Part shown: positions 2,903 through 60,881 of the stretch, piece after piece
How positions within the stretch are numbered: position 1 is the first letter of the stretch
Layout of the letters: every line of letters begins with the position of its first letter
Assembly (NCBI RefSeq): GCF_003334765.1
Contig: NZ_QOWT01000021.1
Direction: 5' to 3' (one strand)
DNA length: 64,000 nucleotides
From: Escherichia coli
Lineage (GTDB): Bacteria; Pseudomonadota; Gammaproteobacteria; Enterobacterales; Enterobacteriaceae
Notes under the pieces: generated by a model
Database searches by the model: none
The model's input: the letters and a program-made list of their open reading frames with translations, nothing else
What the model was told of the DNA's origin: nothing
Translations under genes and position numbers: made by a program

Positions 2903-3598
2903 TTACCTCAACCCGGTTTTCTGCTTCATCGCTGCCATCACCGTCGGTTTATCGGCCAGATAATGATTCAAACCGTTGGCGCGTAAATTACATGCCGCAC
3001 AATGACCGCAACCGTCGCCTTTAAAGCCGTTATAGCAGGTCAACGTTTCGTTACGGACTAAATCCAGTTTGCCGTAATAATCTGCCAGCGCCCAGGTTTC
3101 CGCTTTATCAATCCACATCAGCGGCGTTTCAAAACGAATATCTTTCGCCATGCCCAAACTGACGGCATGGTTTAGTGCTTTCACAAACTCATCGCGGCAA
3201 TCCGGGTAGCCGGAGAAATCCGTTTCGCAGACGCCAGTAATTACGGCTTCTGCTTTTACCTGATACGCATATATTGCCGCCAGCGTCAGGAACAAAATAT
3301 TACGCCCTGGGACAAACGTATTCGGGATACCATCGGCTTCAGGTTCATAATCAGGCACCGGAATGCTGTCACGCGTCAGGCTACTGACCGCCAGCTCGTT
3401 GAGCAGGGTGACATCCAGCACCTTATGCGCGCGTGCCCCCAGTTTCAGCGCCAGTTCGCGTGCCACGTCGATTTCTGCGCGATGCCGCTGACCGTAATCG
3501 AACGTCACGCAATGGACTTCATCATATTGTTGTAATGCCTGCACCAGACAGGTGGTGGAATCCTGACCTCCACTGAACACAACGACAGCACGTTTCAT
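2903..3598 (-). CDS. queC: 7-cyano-7-deazaguanine synthase (queuosine biosynthesis)
   Basis: 231 aa [21 protein letters not shown].. with PP-loop SGGxDS motif and C-terminal Cys cluster. Confidence 0.93.
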
Positions 3599-3662
3599 AG
3601 ATAATCCTGCTTGAACAATAAAAGCGTTATGGTAACGCCTGCGATTAACCCGGACCAGCTAT

Positions 3663-5363
3663 TCATTGCGATGGCGCGGGAAGCCAGGCTTCGGTAAATT
3701 CAAACCAGCCGCGCGGTGTCAGTCGCACACCGTTCACGCCGGGAGGGGCACTAATGCGATAGTGATAGTTGAACAGCGGCGTCAGCGTCGCATCTGTCAT
3801 TAACTGGCTAAAAACCGCTTTCAGGGCATTAAATCGGTTTTCTTCATCAGGCATTATTTGCACGGCATCCAGTGTCGATTGTAGATGTGCGTATGCTGGA
3901 GCGTCGAAAACATGTGGCCACAGCGGATCGCAGCGCAGCCATTGCTCCAGAGTATATTCCGGTGCTTCGCCAATTAATCTGTCGCCCATCATGAGGTCTG
4001 CGTGTGCCTGTAGGGTCGTGTCGTCCCAGTTTTTTGCGTTATGAAAAATAATTGTGAGTTCACAGCCTTCCGCTGCCAGTGTCGCCTGTAGGCGTTCTGC
4101 CATGGTATGAAGTTCTATCGGTAGGTGATAAACCAGCGTCAAGGTTTTCGGTAGTTTGACTTCATCCGGTACCTGCCAATGCGGAATAGTCCAGCCTGGC
4201 AGTAATGCATGACTGGCGGTGATCAGGTTTTCTCCGACTTCTAACGTTTGTAATAAACCGGATTGATGAATAATGGAGATCACTTTTCGCGCCTGCCAGA
4301 GGGAGAGTCGGGGACTTTTGCGCAACGTCAAATAGCAAAAACCTAAACTGATGCCGCTACTGACCTGGCTGACCCGTTGCAGCTCCTCCGGTTTGCCGAT
4401 GGTGATTTGCACGGGATGCCGACAACTGGTTCCCAAATCTTTTTCGAAAAGCGGCGGAGTTATCCAGTACTCAACCGCTTTAAGCAGCGGATGACGTAAA
4501 TGGTAATAATCATGGCTTTCCAGGCGCACCAGCTCTGCTGTGAATTGTGTTAAGCGAAAAGGACCCGTGCCGATCAGTGGGAATTGCGGATGCGCCAGAT
4601 GGCTGCAATAGCTCGCCAGCCGGTGCGCAAGCCAGTAATCAGGGCGATGTAAAAAGAAGGTCAGACACTGCGGATGGGTGACTTCAATACGCTTCACGCT
4701 AATAAATAATTGATCCAGTGCTGGCAGTTGTAACAGCATCAATAATCGCTGGTGTAAGTGTGAGGCTTTTACTGCATCGCCGTTATGCCAGTGTAGGGTT
4801 GAACGAAGATAAAAGTCCCAGCGTAACCCGTCAGTAGAGGTTTCCCAGTGATGCGCTAAATCGCCAATCGGGCGCTGAGTATTATTATCGAAGCGGGTCA
4901 GGCCGGAAAATATCTGCCCGGCGAGATGCTGCTCGGCACGGCCGGGCAAAAAGCCTGGTTGTAGCGGTTCGAGCGGGCGATAGTAGGGAATACGCAACGT
5001 GGGTGTATCGTTTTGCCATTGTCCGCCCATAAACGGCTGTAACAGAGTGCGCAGCTCACCTGGGGCCAGTTGCGCCAGCTCCAGCACATCTTGCTGCTTT
5101 CCGGTTTCCAGTGCCTGTTCCATCATCGCATTGCGTAGCGATTCCGGCGTGACCAGAAAGCGTAATTGTCCGCGCTTTCCGCGTCCTGACTGCGCCTGCC
5201 ACTCCAGCCATCCCGCCTCCTGTGCCTGACGCAACAGCGTACGAACATGGCGTTCGCTGCAAAAACAGCGTTCGGCCAGTTCGCTGACGGTGACGGTTTG
5301 CGGCTTTCCGGCGGAAGGTTGCCACAGACGTTGATACTGGTTAAGACGGTTGAGCAATCGCAT
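3663..5363 (-). CDS. ybaE: uncharacterized protein YbaE, solute-binding-protein-like
   Basis: ORF track frame 3663..5378; ATG at 5363 (MRLLNRLNQ..) gives 566 aa; the ORF-track start at 5378 is a TTG further upstream. Confidence 0.85.
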   Translation of the reverse strand: MRLLNRLNQYQRLWQPSAGKPQTVTVSELAERCFCSERHVRTLLRQAQEAGWLEWQAQSGRGKRGQLRFLVTPESLRNAMMEQALETGKQQDVLELAQLAPGELRTLLQPFMGGQWQNDTPTLRIPYYRPLEPLQPGFLPGRAEQHLAGQIFSGLTRFDNNTQRPIGDLAHHWETSTDGLRWDFYLRSTLHWHNGDAVKASHLHQRLLMLLQLPALDQLFISVKRIEVTHPQCLTFFLHRPDYWLAHRLASYCSHLAHPQFPLIGTGPFRLTQFTAELVRLESHDYYHLRHPLLKAVEYWITPPLFEKDLGTSCRHPVQITIGKPEELQRVSQVSSGISLGFCYLTLRKSPRLSLWQARKVISIIHQSGLLQTLEVGENLITASHALLPGWTIPHWQVPDEVKLPKTLTLVYHLPIELHTMAERLQATLAAEGCELTIIFHNAKNWDDTTLQAHADLMMGDRLIGEAPEYTLEQWLRCDPLWPHVFDAPAYAHLQSTLDAVQIMPDEENRFNALKAVFSQLMTDATLTPLFNYHYRISAPPGVNGVRLTPRGWFEFTEAWLPAPSQ

Positions 5364-14498: not shown

Positions 14499-14612
14499 GG
14501 GGGCTCTGTTGGTTCTCCCGCAACGCTACTCTGTTTACCAGGTCAGGTCCGGAAGGAAGCAGCCAAGGCAGATGACGCGTGTGCCGGGATGTAGCTGGCA
14601 GGGCCCCCACCC
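14499..14612 (+). ncRNA. ffs: 4.5S RNA, signal recognition particle RNA
   Basis: 114 nt GGGGGCTCTGTTGGTTCTCCCGCAACGCTACTCTGTTTACCAGGTCAGGTCCGGAAGGAAGCAGCCAAGGCAGATGACGCGTGTGCCGGGATGTAGCTGGCAGGGCCCCCACCC read directly; matches the 4.5S RNA as I recall it, including the conserved GGAAGCAGCCAAGGCAG domain IV core. Confidence 0.95.
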
Positions 14613-22476: not shown

Positions 22477-23670
22477 TTAAGACTTGGACTGTTCAGGCTG
22501 AGCACCGCTTGCGGCTTGCTGGTTATTATCAGCGGTAACTTCTTGTGCTTTTACCTGGACACCAGGACGCACTTTCTGCAGCCCACTTATTACTACGCGA
22601 TCGCCTGCTTTCAGACCTTCTGTCACCAGCCACTTATCGCCAATAGCCTGGCTTGCAACGATCGGACGGGTTTCCACTTTGTCATCCGCGCCAACTACCA
22701 GTACGGTGGCATCGCCACGCGGCGTACGGGTTACGCCCTGTTGCGGGACTAAAATAGCGTTTGGATTAAGCCCTTCTTCCAGACGTGCGCGCACGAACAT
22801 ACCCGGCAGCAGAGTGTGATCCGGGTTCGGGAAGATAGCGCGTAGGGTGATAGACCCAGTGGTCTGATCAACGGTAACGTCAGAGAATTCCAGCGTACCG
22901 TCCTGCGGGAACTTAATGCCGTCACTGGTGATCAGTGACACTTTGGCTTTGCCGTTCTCTTGTTTCAGCGTGCCATTCGCCAGTTCCTGTTTCAGGCGCA
23001 GGAAGTCGTTGCTGGACTGGGTCACATCAACGTAGATCGGATCAAGTTGCTGCACGGTTGCCAGCGCAGTCGCCTGACCGTTCTGTACCAATGCGCCTTC
23101 CGTCACGTTCGACTTACCAATGCGACCGCTAATCGGAGAGGTGACTTTGGTGTAAGCCAGATTGATCCGCGCAGTTTCAACGGCAGCTTTCGCCGCAGTT
23201 ACCGCAGCATTCGCCTGTTGCGCATCAGCCAGAGCCTGATCGTACTCTTGCTTACTGATGTACTGAGTACCGAGCAGTTTCTGATAACGATTCACCGTCA
23301 ATTGCGCGATATTGGCTGCAGCCTGGGCTTTCGCCAGATCACCTTTCGCACTGTCGTATGTCGCCTGATAGGTCGCAGGATCAATCTGATAGAGAGAGAC
23401 ACCTGCTTCGATGTCGCTACCTTCTTTGAAATTACGCTTCAGGATAATCCCGCTAACTTGAGGACGAACTTCTGCGATCCGGTAGGCACTGGTGCGACCC
23501 GGAAGCTCGGTTGTGATCTGCAGAGGTTCAGTTTTGACTGTTACTACGCCAACGGCGGGCATCTGCTGGCCACCTTGTTGGGCCTGTTTGTCGTCACATC
23601 CTGTTAGGGCTAAGCTGCCTGAGAGCATCAGAACGACCGCCAGAGGCGTAAACCCTCTGTTTTTGTTCAT
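22477..23670 (-). CDS. acrA: RND efflux periplasmic adaptor (membrane fusion lipoprotein) AcrA
   Basis: ATG at 23670 (MNKNRGFTPLAVVLMLSGSLALTGCDDKQ..) 397 aa, lipobox LTGC; 22 nt upstream of acrB. Confidence 0.97.
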   Translation of the reverse strand: MNKNRGFTPLAVVLMLSGSLALTGCDDKQAQQGGQQMPAVGVVTVKTEPLQITTELPGRTSAYRIAEVRPQVSGIILKRNFKEGSDIEAGVSLYQIDPATYQATYDSAKGDLAKAQAAANIAQLTVNRYQKLLGTQYISKQEYDQALADAQQANAAVTAAKAAVETARINLAYTKVTSPISGRIGKSNVTEGALVQNGQATALATVQQLDPIYVDVTQSSNDFLRLKQELANGTLKQENGKAKVSLITSDGIKFPQDGTLEFSDVTVDQTTGSITLRAIFPNPDHTLLPGMFVRARLEEGLNPNAILVPQQGVTRTPRGDATVLVVGADDKVETRPIVASQAIGDKWLVTEGLKAGDRVVISGLQKVRPGVQVKAQEVTADNNQQAASGAQPEQSKS

Positions 23671-23759
23671 ATGTAAACCTCGAGTGTCCGATTTCAAATT
23701 GGTCAATGGTCAAAAGTTAATAAACCCATTGCTGCGTTTATATTATCGTCGTGCTATGG

Positions 23760-23783
23760 TACATACATTCACAAATGTATGTA
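23760..23783. promoter_or_regulatory. AcrR operator, 24-bp inverted repeat in the divergent acrR/acrAB promoter region
   Basis: TACATACATTCACAAATGTATGTA read directly; near-perfect palindrome (TACATACATT / AATGTATGTA arms) 28 nt upstream of acrR ATG. Confidence 0.85.
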
Positions 23784-23811
23784 AATCTAACGCCTGTAAA
23801 TTCACGAACAT

Positions 23812-24459
23812 ATGGCACGAAAAACCAAACAAGAAGCGCAAGAAACGCGCCAACACATCCTCGATGTGGCTCTACGTCTTTTCTCACAGCAGGGGGTATC
23901 ATCCACCTCGCTGGGCGAGATTGCAAAAGCAGCTGGCGTTACGCGCGGTGCAATCTACTGGCATTTTAAAGACAAGTCGGATTTGTTCAGTGAGATCTGG
24001 GAACTGTCAGAATCCAATATTGGTGAACTAGAGCTTGAGTATCAGGCAAAATTCCCTGGCGATCCACTCTCAGTATTAAGAGAGATATTAATTCATGTTC
24101 TTGAATCCACGGTGACAGAAGAACGGCGTCGATTATTGATGGAGATTATATTCCACAAATGCGAATTTGTCGGAGAAATGGCTGTTGTGCAACAGGCACA
24201 ACGTAATCTCTGTCTGGAAAGTTATGACCGTATAGAACAAACGTTAAAACATTGTATTGAAGCGAAAATGTTGCCTGCGGATTTAATGACGCGTCGCGCA
24301 GCAATTATTATGCGCGGCTATATTTCCGGCCTGATGGAAAACTGGCTCTTTGCCCCGCAATCTTTTGATCTTAAAAAAGAAGCCCGCGATTACGTTGCCA
24401 TCTTACTGGAGATGTATCTCCTGTGCCCCACGCTTCGTAATCCTGCCACTAACGAATAA
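23812..24459 (+). CDS. acrR: TetR-family repressor of acrAB
   Basis: 215 aa [55 protein letters not shown].. TetR HTH. Confidence 0.97.
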
Positions 24460-54647: not shown

Positions 54648-55413
54648 TATTACTAACGAATCATTAGCACTGGCATTAATGCTGGTGGTGGTGGCAATCT
54701 TAATTAGCCATAAAGAAAAACTGGCGCTGGAGAAAGATATTCTCTGGAGCGTCGGGCGAGCGATAATTCAGCTGATTATTGTCGGCTATGTGCTGAAGTA
54801 TATTTTCAGCGTGGATGATGCCAGCCTGACATTATTGATGGTGTTATTTATCTGCTTTAATGCGGCGTGGAACGCGCAAAAACGCAGTAAATATATTGCT
54901 AAAGCTTTTATCTCATCGTTTATTGCCATTACGGTCGGGGCGGGAATTACCCTGGCGGTGCTGATTCTCTCAGGGTCGATTGAATTTATCCCGATGCAGG
55001 TGATCCCTATCGCCGGGATGATTGCCGGTAACGCCATGGTAGCGGTGGGGTTGTGTTACAACAATTTAGGGCAACGGGTCATTAGCGAACAGCAACAGAT
55101 TCAGGAGAAACTGAGTCTTGGTGCGACGCCGAAGCAGGCTTCAGCGATATTGATTCGCGACAGTATTCGCGCGGCTTTAATTCCGACGGTCGATTCAGCA
55201 AAAACGGTTGGCTTAGTGAGTTTACCAGGAATGATGTCCGGGCTGATATTTGCCGGGATTGATCCGGTGAAGGCGATTAAATATCAGATTATGGTGACCT
55301 TTATGCTGCTCTCAACCGCCAGCTTGTCGACCATTATTGCCTGCTATTTAACCTATCGTAAGTTTTATAATTCGCGCCACCAGTTGGTGGTGACGCAATT
55401 GAAGAAGAAATGA
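54634..55413 (+). CDS. fetB: ABC transporter permease FetB (YbbM)
   Basis: ATG at 54634 (MNSHNITNESLALALMLVVVAILISHKEKL..) 259 aa, overlapping fetA 3' end by 14 nt. Confidence 0.9.
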   Translation: MNSHNITNESLALALMLVVVAILISHKEKLALEKDILWSVGRAIIQLIIVGYVLKYIFSVDDASLTLLMVLFICFNAAWNAQKRSKYIAKAFISSFIAITVGAGITLAVLILSGSIEFIPMQVIPIAGMIAGNAMVAVGLCYNNLGQRVISEQQQIQEKLSLGATPKQASAILIRDSIRAALIPTVDSAKTVGLVSLPGMMSGLIFAGIDPVKAIKYQIMVTFMLLSTASLSTIIACYLTYRKFYNSRHQLVVTQLKKK

Positions 55414-55475
55414 TGCGATGCCGGATGCGCAGCATCGCATCCGGCGTTGTGGTTCATGTGCCGATCAACGGAATA

Positions 55476-56372
<897 letters not shown>

Positions 56373-56390: not shown

Positions 56391-57200
56391 TCACCCCTGC
56401 AATATTTTGTCCATCACGCGCCCCGGCAGCAGGCGCTTAAGCACCATTACCGCCCAGGTCACCAGCGTCACCGGATAGCGCATCTTCGGCTTCTCGCTAA
56501 TAAAAGCATGGCGTACTTTGTCCACCACCGCTTCCGGTCCCAACGTAAAGCGGGCGGCGATGCCGGGATTTTCGACTGGTTTATCACTTTGCGTCTGGTT
56601 GACGTTGTCGGTGAAGCGAGTACGAATGGGACCGGGTTCGATCAGGCTGACTTTAATTCCGCTGTGGCGCAGCTCCATGCGCAGTGCGTCTGACCACGCC
56701 TCCAGCGCATATTTACTGGCCGCGTAAGCGCCACGACCCGGCGTGGAGATTAATCCCATCACCGATGATGTCATCACAATACGCCCTTCACCGTGCGGTA
56801 ACATCGCGGGTAACAGGCGCATGGTGAGCTGGTGTGCGCCGAAAAAGTTGGCGGAAAACTGCTGTTCCATCTGCGCACGGCTGATGGTGGAAAGGGGGCC
56901 ATACATGCCGAATCCGGCATTGTTAAAGATCCCATACAGACAATTATCGGTCAGGGCGATCACCTCGTCGGCTGCGCGATCAACACTTTCTGGTGAATCC
57001 AGATCGATCAACACGCCGGTAAATCCCATGCTGTTCATGCGCTCAACATCATCCGGTTTCCGGCAACCTGCCAGCACATGAAAACCCTGGCGTTTTAATT
57101 CGAGCGCGCTTTCCAGGCCAATTCCACTGGAACATCCGGTAATTAAGACCGATTTTTGCATAACTTTACCTGTCAGGATCTCCGTTGCTTTATGAGTCAT
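56391..57200 (-). CDS. ybbO: short-chain dehydrogenase/reductase YbbO
   Basis: 269 aa ORF with Rossmann TGCSSGIG motif and SDR catalytic YAASK. Confidence 0.9.
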   Translation of the reverse strand: MTHKATEILTGKVMQKSVLITGCSSGIGLESALELKRQGFHVLAGCRKPDDVERMNSMGFTGVLIDLDSPESVDRAADEVIALTDNCLYGIFNNAGFGMYGPLSTISRAQMEQQFSANFFGAHQLTMRLLPAMLPHGEGRIVMTSSVMGLISTPGRGAYAASKYALEAWSDALRMELRHSGIKVSLIEPGPIRTRFTDNVNQTQSDKPVENPGIAARFTLGPEAVVDKVRHAFISEKPKMRYPVTLVTWAVMVLKRLLPGRVMDKILQG

Positions 57201-57816
57201 GATTTACTAAAGGCTGCAACTGCTTCGCCATCCAGTCGGCAATAAACGGCTGGGCGTCGCGGTTGGGATGAATACCGTCATCCTGCATCCATTGTGGCTT
57301 GAGGTAGACCTCTTCCATAAAAAAGGGCAGCAGCGGAACATCAAACTCTTTGGCGAGTTTGGGGTAAATGGCGCTAAAGGCTTCATTATAACGGCGACCA
57401 TAGTTTGCAGGCAGACGTATTTGCATTAACAATGGTTCAGCGTTGGCGGCTTTGACATCCTGCAAAATCTGGCGCAGCGTTTGCTCGGTTTGCTGTGGCT
57501 GAAAACCACGCAAACCGTCATTGCCGCCCAGTTCAACCAGCACCCAACGCGGCTGATGCTGTTTCAGCAGAGCCGGAAGGCGCGCCAGTCCTTGTTGCGA
57601 GGTGTCGCCGCTGATGCTGGCATTAACTACCGACGTTTTACTCTGCCACTTATCATTCAACAAGGCAGGCCAGGCCGCGCTGGCAGACATTCGATACCCG
57701 GCGCTCAGGCTATCACCCAGAATCAATAACGTGTCCGCTGCGGCGGCACGGAAGGTTAACAGGACCAGGAACAGGAAGGGCAAATGCCAGCGGAAAACAT
57801 TGTTGAAGTTCATCAT
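57190..57816 (-). CDS. tesA: periplasmic acyl-CoA thioesterase I / lysophospholipase L1 (SGNH hydrolase)
   Basis: ATG at 57816 (MMNFNNVFRWHLPFLFLVLLTFRAAAADTLLILGDSLSAGY..) 208 aa with signal peptide and GDSL motif. Confidence 0.95.
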   Translation of the reverse strand: MMNFNNVFRWHLPFLFLVLLTFRAAAADTLLILGDSLSAGYRMSASAAWPALLNDKWQSKTSVVNASISGDTSQQGLARLPALLKQHQPRWVLVELGGNDGLRGFQPQQTEQTLRQILQDVKAANAEPLLMQIRLPANYGRRYNEAFSAIYPKLAKEFDVPLLPFFMEEVYLKPQWMQDDGIHPNRDAQPFIADWMAKQLQPLVNHDS

Positions 57817-58470
57817 CTTAAGAAGTCCGTCGGTCAGGGGGAGCATGAACTCTCCATCCTCACCGGAGTTGAGCTGGTTGTCAAACGTGGCGAGACCATC
57901 GCACTGGTGGGCGAGTCGGGATCGGGTAAGTCAACCTTGCTGGCGATCCTCGCCGGGCTTGATGACGGCAGCAGTGGCGAAGTGAGTCTGGTGGGACAAC
58001 CGCTACATAATATGGACGAAGAAGCGCGGGCAAAGTTGCGCGCGAAGCACGTCGGCTTTGTTTTTCAGTCATTTATGTTAATTCCTACCCTTAACGCGCT
58101 GGAAAACGTCGAGCTTCCGGCTCTGCTGCGCGGTGAGAGTAGCGCGGAAAGTCGTAACGGGGCGAAAGCGTTGCTCGAACAGTTAGGGCTGGGTAAACGT
58201 CTGGATCATCTTCCGGCACAGCTTTCCGGCGGTGAACAGCAACGAGTGGCGCTGGCACGAGCCTTTAATGGTCGACCTGATGTGCTGTTTGCCGACGAAC
58301 CCACCGGCAACCTTGACCGCCAGACGGGCGATAAAATTGCCGACCTGCTGTTTTCCCTCAACCGTGAACATGGCACCACGTTGATTATGGTGACCCACGA
58401 CCTGCAACTGGCGGCACGCTGCGACCGCTGCTTACGGCTGGTGAACGGGCAGTTGCAGGAGGAAGCATGA
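57784..58470 (+). CDS. ybbA: ABC transporter ATP-binding protein YbbA (MacB/LolD-like)
   Basis: 228 aa ORF with Walker A GESGSGKST and signature LSGGEQQR; its 5' end overlaps the divergent tesA 5' end. Confidence 0.92.
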   Translation: MPAENIVEVHHLKKSVGQGEHELSILTGVELVVKRGETIALVGESGSGKSTLLAILAGLDDGSSGEVSLVGQPLHNMDEEARAKLRAKHVGFVFQSFMLIPTLNALENVELPALLRGESSAESRNGAKALLEQLGLGKRLDHLPAQLSGGEQQRVALARAFNGRPDVLFADEPTGNLDRQTGDKIADLLFSLNREHGTTLIMVTHDLQLAARCDRCLRLVNGQLQEEA

Positions 58471-60881
58471 TTGCACGTTGGTTCTGGCGCGAATGGCGTT
58501 CGCCGTCGCTATTAATTGTCTGGCTGGCGCTAAGCCTGGCGGTGGCCTGCGTGCTGGCGCTGGGCAATATCAGCGATCGCATGGAGAAGGGCTTAAGCCA
58601 GCAAAGCCGTGAGTTTATGGCGGGCGATCGGGCGTTGCGCAGTTCACGCGAAGTGCCGCAAGCGTGGCTGGAGGAAGCGCAAAAGCGCGGCCTGAAAGTC
58701 GGCAAGCAGCTGACTTTCGCCACAATGACCTTTGCAGGCGACACACCGCAGCTGGCGAACGTCAAAGCGGTGGATGATATCTACCCGATGTATGGCGATC
58801 TGCAAACTAATCCCCCTGGCCTGAAACCGCAGGCGGGCAGCGTATTGCTGGCCCCACGCCTGATGGCACTGCTTAACCTGAAAACGGGCGACACCATTGA
58901 CGTGGGCGATGCCACCTTGCGGATTGCCGGAGAAGTGATTCAGGAACCGGATTCCGGTTTTAACCCCTTCCAGATGGCTCCGCGTCTGATGATGAATCTG
59001 GCGGATGTCGATAAAACCGGAGCCGTGCAGCCGGGGAGTCGGGTCACCTGGCGTTATAAATTCGGCGGCAACGAGAACCAGCTCGACGGCTATGAGAAAT
59101 GGTTGTTACCTCAGCTTAAACCCGAACAACGCTGGTACGGTCTGGAACAGGACGAAGGCGCGCTGGGGCGATCGATGGAACGCTCGCAACAGTTCCTGCT
59201 GCTTTCGGCGCTTCTGACCTTGCTGCTGGCAGTGGCAGCGGTGGCGGTAGCGATGAATCATTACTGTCGCAGTCGCTACGATCTGGTGGCGATCCTCAAA
59301 ACGCTGGGGGCAGGGCGAGCGCAACTGCGTAAGCTAATCGTCGGTCAGTGGTTGATGGTGCTGACGCTTTCAGCCGTTACCGGTGGGGCCATAGGCCTGT
59401 TGTTCGAAAACGTGTTGATGGTGCTGCTCAAGCCCGTTCTGCCTGCTGCACTACCGCCAGCCAGCCTCTGGCCGTGGCTGTGGGCGCTTGGCACCATGAC
59501 GGTCATCTCGCTGCTGGTGGGGCTACGACCATATCGCTTGTTGCTGGCAACGCAGCCTTTACGCGTATTACGTAATGATGTGGTAGCGAACGTCTGGCCG
59601 CTGAAGTTTTATCTGCCGATTGTCAGTGTGGTGGTTGTGCTGCTGCTCGCCGGATTAATGGGTGGCAGCATGCTGCTTTGGGCGGTGCTGGCGGGCGCGG
59701 TAGTACTGGCTTTGCTGTGCGGTGTGCTGGGCTGGATGCTGCTGAATGTACTTCGCCGCATGACGCTGAAATCGCTGCCTCTGCGCCTGGCGGTTAGCCG
59801 CCTGTTACGTCAGCCGTGGTCAACGTTAAGTCAGCTTTCGGCATTTTCGCTCTCCTTTATGCTGCTGGCACTGCTGCTGGTGTTGCGTGGCGATCTGCTC
59901 GACCGCTGGCAGCAGCAGCTACCTCCAGAAAGCCCGAACTACTTTTTAATTAACATCGCCACAGAACAGGTAGCACCGCTAAAAGCGTTCCTCGCGGAAC
60001 ATCAGATAGTCCCGGAATCGTTTTATCCGGTGGTGCGGGCGCGGCTGACGGCGATTAACGATAAGCCGACAGAAGGTAATGAAGATGAGGCGCTTAACCG
60101 CGAACTCAATCTTACCTGGCAAAATACGCGGCCCGATCATAATCCGATTGTCGCCGGTAACTGGCCGCCAAAAGCCGATGAAGTGTCGATGGAAGAGGGG
60201 CTGGCGAAACGCTTAAACGTTGCCCTCGGTGATACCGTGACTTTTATGGGCGATACCCAGGAGTTCCGCGCTAAAGTGACCAGCCTGCGCAAAGTGGACT
60301 GGGAAAGTCTGCGGCCTAATTTCTATTTTATTTTCCCTGAAGGGGCATTAGACGGGCAACCGCAGAGCTGGCTTACCAGTTTCCGCTGGGAGAATGGCAA
60401 CGGCATGTTGACACAACTCAACCGCCAGTTCCCGACCATTAGCCTGTTAGATATTGGCGCGATTTTAAAACAGGTCGGTCAGGTGCTGGAGCAGGTAAGT
60501 CGGGCGCTGGAAGTGATGGTGGTACTGGTCACCGCCTGCGGTATGTTGCTGTTGCTGGCACAGGTGCAGGTGGGAATGCGTCAGCGTCATCAGGAGCTGG
60601 TGGTGTGGCGCACACTCGGTGCGGGGAAAAAACTGCTGCGTACCACGTTGTGGTGTGAGTTCGCCATGCTTGGGTTTGTTTCCGGCCTGGTGGCCGCAAT
60701 TGGTGCGGAAACGGCGCTGGCAGTGTTGCAGGCGAAAGTGTTTGATTTTCCGTGGGAGCCAGACTGGCGATTGTGGATTGTTCTGCCGTGCAGCGGAGCG
60801 CTGCTGCTGTCGCTTTTCGGCGGCTGGCTGGGTGCGCGACTGGTTAAGGGTAAGGCGCTGTTCAGGCAGTTTGCGGGGTGA
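58467..60881 (+). CDS. ybbP: ABC transporter permease YbbP (duplicated FtsX/MacB-type domains)
   Basis: 804 aa ORF; ATG overlaps ybbA TGA (ATGA); two FtsX-like TM blocks with large periplasmic loops. Confidence 0.92.
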   Translation: MIARWFWREWRSPSLLIVWLALSLAVACVLALGNISDRMEKGLSQQSREFMAGDRALRSSREVPQAWLEEAQKRGLKVGKQLTFATMTFAGDTPQLANVKAVDDIYPMYGDLQTNPPGLKPQAGSVLLAPRLMALLNLKTGDTIDVGDATLRIAGEVIQEPDSGFNPFQMAPRLMMNLADVDKTGAVQPGSRVTWRYKFGGNENQLDGYEKWLLPQLKPEQRWYGLEQDEGALGRSMERSQQFLLLSALLTLLLAVAAVAVAMNHYCRSRYDLVAILKTLGAGRAQLRKLIVGQWLMVLTLSAVTGGAIGLLFENVLMVLLKPVLPAALPPASLWPWLWALGTMTVISLLVGLRPYRLLLATQPLRVLRNDVVANVWPLKFYLPIVSVVVVLLLAGLMGGSMLLWAVLAGAVVLALLCGVLGWMLLNVLRRMTLKSLPLRLAVSRLLRQPWSTLSQLSAFSLSFMLLALLLVLRGDLLDRWQQQLPPESPNYFLINIATEQVAPLKAFLAEHQIVPESFYPVVRARLTAINDKPTEGNEDEALNRELNLTWQNTRPDHNPIVAGNWPPKADEVSMEEGLAKRLNVALGDTVTFMGDTQEFRAKVTSLRKVDWESLRPNFYFIFPEGALDGQPQSWLTSFRWENGNGMLTQLNRQFPTISLLDIGAILKQVGQVLEQVSRALEVMVVLVTACGMLLLLAQVQVGMRQRHQELVVWRTLGAGKKLLRTTLWCEFAMLGFVSGLVAAIGAETALAVLQAKVFDFPWEPDWRLWIVLPCSGALLLSLFGGWLGARLVKGKALFRQFAG

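Follow-up and report, generated by a model that had tools for sequence, protein, structure and literature searches.

Two divergent genes that begin inside each other raise the question of where each of them starts, where the signals for their expression can lie and what such an arrangement means for genes whose products may work together. The pair formed by tesA and ybbA of Escherichia coli was analyzed in a window of 64,000 nucleotides, the whole stretch of DNA under study (NCBI RefSeq assembly GCF_003334765.1, contig NZ_QOWT01000021.1), to which all positions refer. The initial annotation of this window had proposed that the two 5' coding ends overlap by 33 bp, that each promoter lies within the other gene, and that the arrangement reflects coordinated expression and possibly a shared lipid-related function.

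Two head-to-head operons and their products

Many complete genomes match bases 57100-58600 with 100% identity, and the segment is present in 5419/5426. The locus consists of two head-to-head operons, tesA-ybbO on the minus strand and ybbA-ybbP on the plus strand (Table 1). Each of TesA, YbbA and YbbP matched an equivalog-level NCBIfam model above its cut-off: TesA matched NF007819 with 413 bits (cut-off 270), YbbA matched NF007879 over its full length of residues 1-228 with 478.8 bits (cut-off 336), and YbbP matched NF041854 with 1458 bits (cut-off 999). TesA carries the GDS motif and is an SGNH/GDSL hydrolase with a cleavable signal peptide, the end of which agrees with the PDB chains of the mature protein that begin at residue 27. 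YbbP is a YbbP-type permease with two periplasmic domains, identical over residues 1-804 to chain A of PDB 9GE6/7/8 (E = 0); TesA and YbbP both match entries 9GE6-9GE8 with identical or near-identical chains. The nearest relatives of YbbA are the LolD, MacB and FtsE ATPases. For ybbO, the NCBIfam model aligns from Met14 only.

The functional link that had been suggested for the two operons is established by published work on the same locus and the same proteins. YbbAP-TesA co-purifies, its cryo-EM structure is available (9GE8; McAndrew et al., PLoS Biol 2025, PMC12646458), and ester and thioester hydrolysis by YbbAP-TesA was assayed in the same study, which proposes that lysophospholipids or other hydrophobic esters are extracted from the inner membrane for hydrolysis. 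The description of the substrate as unclear, and of the locus as an open lead, is therefore out of date, since the 2025 paper already describes the complex, remarks on the overlap of the two operons and suggests that they are 'possibly co-regulated'. The lead towards a common lipid function of TesA and YbbAP has thus been followed up in print and poses no new question. Both the overlap, which is annotated and published, and the functional link, which is published, are already known; the register, start codons, promoters, start sites and phylogenetic spacing of the overlap are not analyzed at base level in PMC12646458. The additions made here are modest and descriptive. They concern the antisense register with its coupling of Met and His codons, a predicted promoter that coincides with a mapped transcription start site (TSS) and shows synonymous-site constraint, and the class-wide occurrence of spacer-less or shared-CATG starts.

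Table 1. Positions of genes, start codons and expression signals at the tesA-ybbA locus, in window coordinates.
Feature	Position	Strand	Description
ybbO CDS	56391..57200	minus	SDR aldehyde reductase, downstream of tesA; annotated 11-bp overlap with the tesA end
tesA CDS	57190..57816	minus	thioesterase I / protease I / lysophospholipase L1, 208 aa
TesA signal peptide	57739-57816	minus	residues 1-26; mature protein from ADTLL
ybbA CDS	57784..58470	plus	ABC ATPase of the YbbAP type VII transporter, 228 aa
ybbP CDS	58467..60881	plus	804-aa permease; 4-nt ATGA overlap with ybbA
Dual-coding overlap of the tesA and ybbA 5' ends	57784..57816 (30 bp: 57784-57813)	both	from ORFs and annotations
Second ATG of the tandem ATGATG	57811..57813	minus	alternative RefSeq/PGAP tesA start, 207 aa
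Upstream in-frame ATG	57844..57846	minus	start of the mechanical 218-aa ORF; probably not a start codon
ybbA Shine-Dalgarno AGGAAGGG	57773..57780	plus	read from the sequence; other strand encodes P-F-L of the TesA signal peptide
tesA promoter P1	57856..57884	minus	-35 TTGACA 57884..57879, 17-bp spacer, -10 GAGGAT 57861..57856; ybbA codons 25-34
Main tesA TSS	57848	minus	EDL933 Cappable-seq TSS 613285; ybbA codon 22, 64 nt into the ybbA CDS
Candidate tesA promoter P2	58000..58033	minus	TTGCCC 58033..58028, 15-bp spacer, TATTAT 58012..58007; inside ybbA; TSS ~58000
Candidate ybbA promoter and TSS (tentative)	57405..57442	plus	TTGCAG-17-AACAAT; TSS 57439-57442; ~344-nt leader antisense to tesA
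Second plus-strand TSS, possible distal ybbA start	57215	plus	tesA 3' end, antisense to tesA
Internal ybbO promoter	57378..57391	minus	perfect -10 TATAAT 57391..57386, inside tesA; TSS 57378

Start codons and dual coding

On the plus strand, the ybbA frame contains an in-frame TAA at 57757, and ATG 57784 is the sole ATG, GTG or TTG before the Walker A motif, which fixes the start of ybbA at the only canonical codon in its frame. On the minus strand, the tesA-frame ORF extends over 57190..57846 and offers ATG 57846, ATG 57816, ATG 57813 and TTG 57783 as candidate starts. The MG1655 annotation places tesA at 519139..519765 (-) and ybbA at 519733..520419 (+), which gives an overlap of 33 bp, and RefSeq/PGAP genomes begin tesA at the second ATG, which gives 30 bp. 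Read from the sequence, which fits either value, the overlap would be 33 or 30 bp depending on the ATG of the tandem that is used. The mapped tesA TSS leaves a 32-nt leader to ATG 57816. In six taxa (C. werkmanii, Yersinia, Rahnella, Photorhabdus, Providencia and Acerihabitans), the ATG equivalent to 57816/57813 is the sole in-frame tesA start ahead of the signal-peptide core, which leaves no alternative to an overlap of 30 nt or more. The overlap is confirmed as genuine, beyond chance and no accident of annotation. tesA and ybbA do start inside each other, the ybbA start being unique in its frame and the tesA start being forced in relatives that have no other.

A start of tesA at TTG 57783 (L12) would abut the ybbA ATG and turn the overlap into an annotation artefact. 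A TTG or GTG is present at the equivalent codon in most Enterobacteriaceae, such a start would mirror the abutting starts seen outside Enterobacterales, and the conservation of the upstream peptide might come from ybbA alone. This reading is nevertheless very improbable. The codon is TGG in C. werkmanii and is no start in the other five of the above taxa, where only the upstream ATG precedes the hydrophobic core; a signal peptide starting at TTG 57783 (MPFLFLVLLTFRAAA) would be devoid of a positively charged n-region, and the 32-nt leader suits ATG 57816. Moreover, the YbbA His codons that face the tesA start are always CAT, at least one of them is always kept, and His is absent there in other orders. 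Still harder to credit is a start at ATG 57846, which would lengthen the precursor to 218 aa and the overlap to 63 bp: no other ATG of the tesA ORF comes earlier, a good Shine-Dalgarno-like GGAGAG precedes it by 5 nt and 218-aa products are given by some gene callers, but it is the CAT of YbbA His21 read backwards, it is gone where YbbA has Q, N or G, and TSS 57848 leaves it a 2-nt leader, with its Shine-Dalgarno outside the main mRNA and only in the minor 58000 transcript. Both starts were rejected on comparative and start-site grounds.

The shared bases are read in exact antisense register. The ybbA ATG is the CAT of TesA His11, and the ATGATG of TesA Met1/Met2 is the CATCAT of YbbA His11/His10, so that the third base of each codon in one gene serves as the first base of a codon in the other. 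The TesA signal peptide takes its n-region, M-M-N-F-N-N-V-F-R-W-H, from one strand, and YbbA takes its first 11 residues, M-P-A-E-N-I-V-E-V-H-H, from the opposite strand. As a result of this dual coding, every base of the overlap is under at least one non-synonymous constraint and the segment barely varies: among 18 Enterobacterales, the mean column entropy was 0.26 in the overlap (all positions), compared with 1.27-1.30 at third positions elsewhere in both genes. At YbbA residues 10 and 11, at least one CAT, and never CAC, was present in all of the 19 aligned Enterobacterales. Relatives in which YbbA reads 'HR' at these residues keep only the second TesA ATG, and those with 'QH' keep only the first. 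Outside Enterobacterales no His is found at these positions, which suggests that the tesA initiator dictates the His codons. Within the ybbA Shine-Dalgarno, AGGAA is kept in 18 of the 19 sequences. With the caveat that the conservation of the TesA n-region and that of the YbbA N-terminus are confounded, these patterns argue that both frames are under purifying selection over the shared bases and suggest that both are translated.

Transcription starts nested in the facing genes

As there is no intergenic DNA between the two genes, all of their expression signals are nested. A strict sigma-70 consensus scan of 57100-58500 gave no promoter; the promoters described here come from a softer position weight matrix (PWM) of our own, and its TSS predictions at ~57849, 58000 and 57440 preceded sight of the mapping data. 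The TSS coordinates of EDL933 were placed in the window via identical gene coordinates, and the agreement of EDL933 and K-12 Cappable-seq to 0-3 nt validates the coordinate offsets.

P1 was the top PWM match on the minus strand. Its predicted TSS is the one at ~57849, and the promoter lies 8 nt upstream of the mapped TSS at 57848, which was detected in 8/8 EDL933 conditions at relative read scores of 12-92 (PMC10469882 Tables S5/S6). The promoter of tesA is thus placed within the ybbA coding sequence by published 5'-end maps, as the initial annotation had expected. A longer tesA leader of 184 nt in MG1655, from RegulonDB and tabulated in PMC10469882 Table S5, corresponds to a start at ~58000 in the window, and the P2 match, ranked second on the minus strand, predicts a TSS exactly 184 nt upstream of ATG 57816.

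The sequence of P1 was analyzed for constraint beyond that of the YbbA peptide. Among 18 Enterobacterales, synonymous-site entropy was lowest of all intervals of ybbA at 57864-57885, which covers the -35 and spacer of P1 (0.54 vs 1.28+-0.19). Two of the 110 four-fold sites of tesA and ybbA were invariant, namely 57882, the -35 G of TTGACA, and 57834, in the tesA leader. In the wider set of genomes described below, a TTGACA-like -35 and an xAGGAT -10 recur at the same ybbA codon position in 34/78 loci. In a codon-resampling control, however, the YbbA peptide 'IL..V.L.VK' yielded a P1-like antisense motif by default (p about 0.3 per genome, median p = 0.42, with 0 loci below 0.05), and an anciently conserved embedded promoter was rejected as the explanation of this recurrence because the peptide encodes the motif anyway. 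It is synonymous-site invariance, within Enterobacterales only, that argues for selection on P1.

For ybbA, no TSS was present within 250 nt upstream in EDL933 Cappable-seq, and no plus-strand site in K-12 Cappable-seq was closer to ybbA than 57442; the ybbA promoter must therefore lie inside tesA or beyond. The site at ~57440 is weak and corresponds to K-12 518615 (U00096.2), at 57442, and to EDL933 612876/7, at 57439/40 and seen in 4 conditions. The candidate promoter TTGCAG-17-AACAAT, one of several PWM matches on the plus strand, predicts a TSS at ~57440 and has hexamers that are poorly conserved. The site at 57215 was found at the same window base in K-12 (518388) and in EDL933 (612652, 7/8 conditions). 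The K-12 plus-strand TSSs are weak, with a relative read score of 1.6-2.5, and in the EDL933 study both 57215 and 57439/40 were classed as antisense (PMC10469882). Synonymous sites of the aligned Enterobacterales show no conserved block that would mark a ybbA promoter inside tesA, and the supplements of PMC10301672 and PMC4681348 do not mention tesA/ybbA. The proposal that each promoter lies within the other gene stands for tesA; for ybbA it is strongly implied, with ~57440 and ~57215 as candidates only. The tesA gene also contains an internal start for ybbO, which corresponds to EDL933 612815 and was detected in 8/8 conditions at relative read scores of 8-21.

The history of the arrangement was followed in 80 loci, one genome per species. 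An initial homology search returned close relatives only, and these loci were retrieved with a profile of diverse TesA homologues built from a representative-library search. The linkage is conserved: a divergent ybbA adjoins tesA in 80/80 loci, although the ybbA-ybbP copy of the symbiont Ca. Pantoea persica has decayed, and ybbP was detected too in 78/80, the exceptions being Massilia and a Methylococcaceae contig that is truncated. Spacing was gauged independently of annotation between the GDS codon of TesA and the Walker A codon of YbbA, which lie 193 nt apart in Enterobacteriaceae and 196 nt apart in Yersinia, Photorhabdus and Providencia. The tesA/ybbA overlap amounts to 30-45 nt in Enterobacterales and is conserved across the order. 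With start choices outside Enterobacterales inferred by a simple rule, an overlap or a gap of at most 30 nt was found in 67/78 loci and a gap of more than 100 nt in 3/78 only. A single CATG palindrome provides both start codons in 22 loci from many orders (Vibrio, Halomonas, Dokdonella, Cycloclasticus, Zhongshania and Thalassotalea, for example), CATATG is found at the starts in Pseudoalteromonas and Aliidiomarina, and Pseudomonas has a 10-nt spacer that holds GGAG. These spacings suggest that the spacer-less arrangement is old and spans Gammaproteobacteria. The ancestral gammaproteobacterial state would have been one of abutting starts, often with a CATG palindrome common to both genes. The tesA start of Enterobacterales would then have shifted ~10 codons upstream into ybbA, adding the n-region MNFNNVFRWH and creating the overlap, which would be mainly a historical by-product of the spacer-less layout, since locked in by dual coding.

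Regulatory readings and related systems

The explanation that we consider likely is that of a genuine, conserved head-to-head overlap of two operons whose products form one machine, the YbbAP-TesA type VII ABC transporter and lipid-hydrolase complex, with the expression signals nested and the overlap mainly a by-product. Under this explanation, ybbA-ybbP would be transcribed from weak promoters deep in tesA (~57440 and/or 57215), the tesA and ybbA mRNAs would be complementary over at least ~400 nt, and RNA polymerase transcribing ybbA would meet the strong constitutive tesA promoter head-on. Interference or antisense pairing should hold YbbAP expression below that of TesA, and no co-induction should occur. 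The coordinated expression suggested at the outset is not supported: the nested face-to-face geometry predicts interference rather than co-induction. A literature search for tesA-ybbA interference, RNase III cleavage and expression ratios found no measurement. The two genes are divergent neighbours with 5'-overlapping transcripts, as seen from the published TSS at 57848, the overlap of the CDSs and ExcludonFinder, in which tesA-ybbA is among the 16 divergent excludons of MG1655 (NAR 2025, PMC12288877).

The overlap might instead be a selected regulatory device, a true excludon in which the TesA:YbbAP ratio would be set, or mutual exclusion imposed, by convergent transcription and/or by RNase III cutting the mRNA duplex. 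Such a device would explain the persistence of the spacer-less layout across Gammaproteobacteria, and it is consistent with three observations: at least half of 58 MG1655 transcriptomes show tesA-ybbA as a divergent excludon (PMC12288877), the promoters are nested face to face with a transcript overlap of at least ~400 nt, and the zero-spacer or shared-CATG layout is conserved in most of the 78 loci, from many orders. We nevertheless regard it as unlikely. The excludon call is automatic with overlapping CDSs and uninformative on function, gene-order conservation is explicable by functional linkage alone, and the literature yielded no expression anticorrelation or RNase III data for tesA-ybbA. 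Furthermore, the two operons encode partners of one complex, whereas described excludons typically have opposing functions. We give a little less weight again to the idea that the spacer-less or shared-CATG start is itself a selected antisense coupling device, in which the tesA promoter and the antisense ybbA leader would fix the enzyme:transporter ratio via interference and/or RNA duplex degradation, the Enterobacterales overlap being a derived elaboration.

A bidirectional control region that co-induces tesA and ybbAP is the least probable of these regulatory readings, and we consider it improbable in its own right. The products of tesA and ybbAP form one complex, and it is on this locus that McAndrew et al. 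(PMC12646458) wrote of possible co-regulation. Against this, the two genes have no shared upstream DNA, with the tesA promoter located downstream of where ybbA starts and the ybbA candidates 340 nt or more into tesA; the tesA TSS is strong in 8/8 conditions, whereas no TSS was called for the ybbA gene; and no transcription-factor site or regulon assignment was found.

The head-to-head overlap can be set beside several known arrangements. As in divergent excludons, the transcripts overlap and each promoter would lie inside the other gene; unlike the excludons described, the overlap goes beyond the UTRs to the CDSs, and the two sides encode members of a single complex, not antagonists. As in short antiparallel overlaps of coding sequences, both strands code and the overlap would be the product of start-codon movement; unlike typical cases, that of tesA and ybbA is conserved order-wide and stands on an older spacer-less arrangement. 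Divergent CDS overlaps account for 2/663 overlapping adjacent pairs in E. coli (PMC4161906). The tesA-ybbA pair is a clean and conserved case of a very rare layout, one of about two in E. coli, and it couples genes whose products belong to one complex. It offers a natural test case for the mutual effects of nested face-to-face promoters, for dual-coding constraint on a signal peptide and on the N-terminus of an ABC ATPase, and for start-codon migration.

With respect to its products, the system resembles LolCDE-LolA, MacAB-TolC and FtsEX-EnvC through the kinship of YbbA with LolD, MacB and FtsE, and it resembles type VII systems in that YbbP is an FtsX/MacB-type permease working with a periplasmic partner. 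It differs in that the partner of YbbAP is an SGNH/GDSL hydrolase with a divergent gene, whereas lolCDE and macAB, for example, form co-oriented operons.

A promoter inside tesA and the start of ybbO

A perfect TATAAT hexamer is present within tesA, 8 nt upstream of the published EDL933 start site 612815, which was detected in 8/8 conditions (PMC10469882). This gives ybbO, the SDR gene downstream of tesA, its own promoter, located in tesA 178 nt upstream of where ybbO begins; tesA and ybbO thus do not form a simple operon with a single promoter, and cnoX is probably served by the ybbO promoter as well. The annotated start of ybbO, and hence its overlap with tesA, may be over-extended, judging from alignments: the match to the NCBIfam SDR model begins no earlier than Met14 (57161), and in more distant relatives the tblastn alignments open at residues 7-13.

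Feature coordinates in the window
Feature	Position	Strand	Remark
-10 TATAAT and start site	57378-57391	-	within tesA
ybbO 5' end versus tesA end	57161-57200	-	annotated start 57200, 11-bp overlap
Conserved synonymous positions, ybbA codons 24-34	57852-57888	+	Enterobacterales comparison
acrA, acrR	22477-24459	-, +	
266-aa ORF	55410-56210	+	antisense to cnoX (ybbN)
Rfam matches, ordinary	14507-14603, 31407-31471, 39498-39575, 45255-45338, 46636-46814		4.5S/SRP RNA, dnaX frameshift element, naRNA4 (REP-type) repeats (n=3), sroB

The tesA-ybbA junction across species

In 22 of the tesA loci compared (one genome per species), belonging to many gammaproteobacterial orders, a single CATG palindrome provides the best-guess start codons of both tesA and ybbA, which overlap by 2 nt (L020, L022, L024, L025, L027-L029, L033-L036, L038, L040, L046, L053, L054, L059, L067, L072-L074 and L080; junction around locus position 4000). 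A CATG in-frame for both genes is present in 40 loci, Pseudomonas among them. To our knowledge, such a shared start has no prior description. The spacer-less arrangement is broken in loci L039, L048, L050 and L056: about 442 nt separate the two starts in Salinicola tamaricis (L056), and the spacing is about 100 nt in Marinobacter and Alteromonas.

In the symbiont Candidatus Pantoea persica (L019, around locus positions 3400-4500) the system is apparently undergoing decay: ybbA is reduced to a fragment covering residues 140-190, residues 210-285 alone are left of ybbP, and a truncated tesA match adjoins these remnants.

Synonymous conservation within ybbA

Among Enterobacterales, synonymous positions are unusually well conserved across ybbA codons 24-34. 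The conserved stretch takes in the promoter spacer (ACC GGA GTT GAG CTG) and exceeds what the -35 and -10 hexamers of the tesA promoter require. An imperfect inverted repeat, ACCGG-N7-CTGGT, lies in this region, which may hold a site for a regulator or else an RNA element.

Other features of the window

No tRNA genes were found within the 64,000 nt, and the Rfam matches were ordinary. The ORF antisense to cnoX, whose translation is of low complexity and rich in arginine and glutamine, resembles a mechanical shadow ORF rather than a gene. The window also carries acrA-acrR, another of the 16 divergent excludons of MG1655 (PMC12288877).
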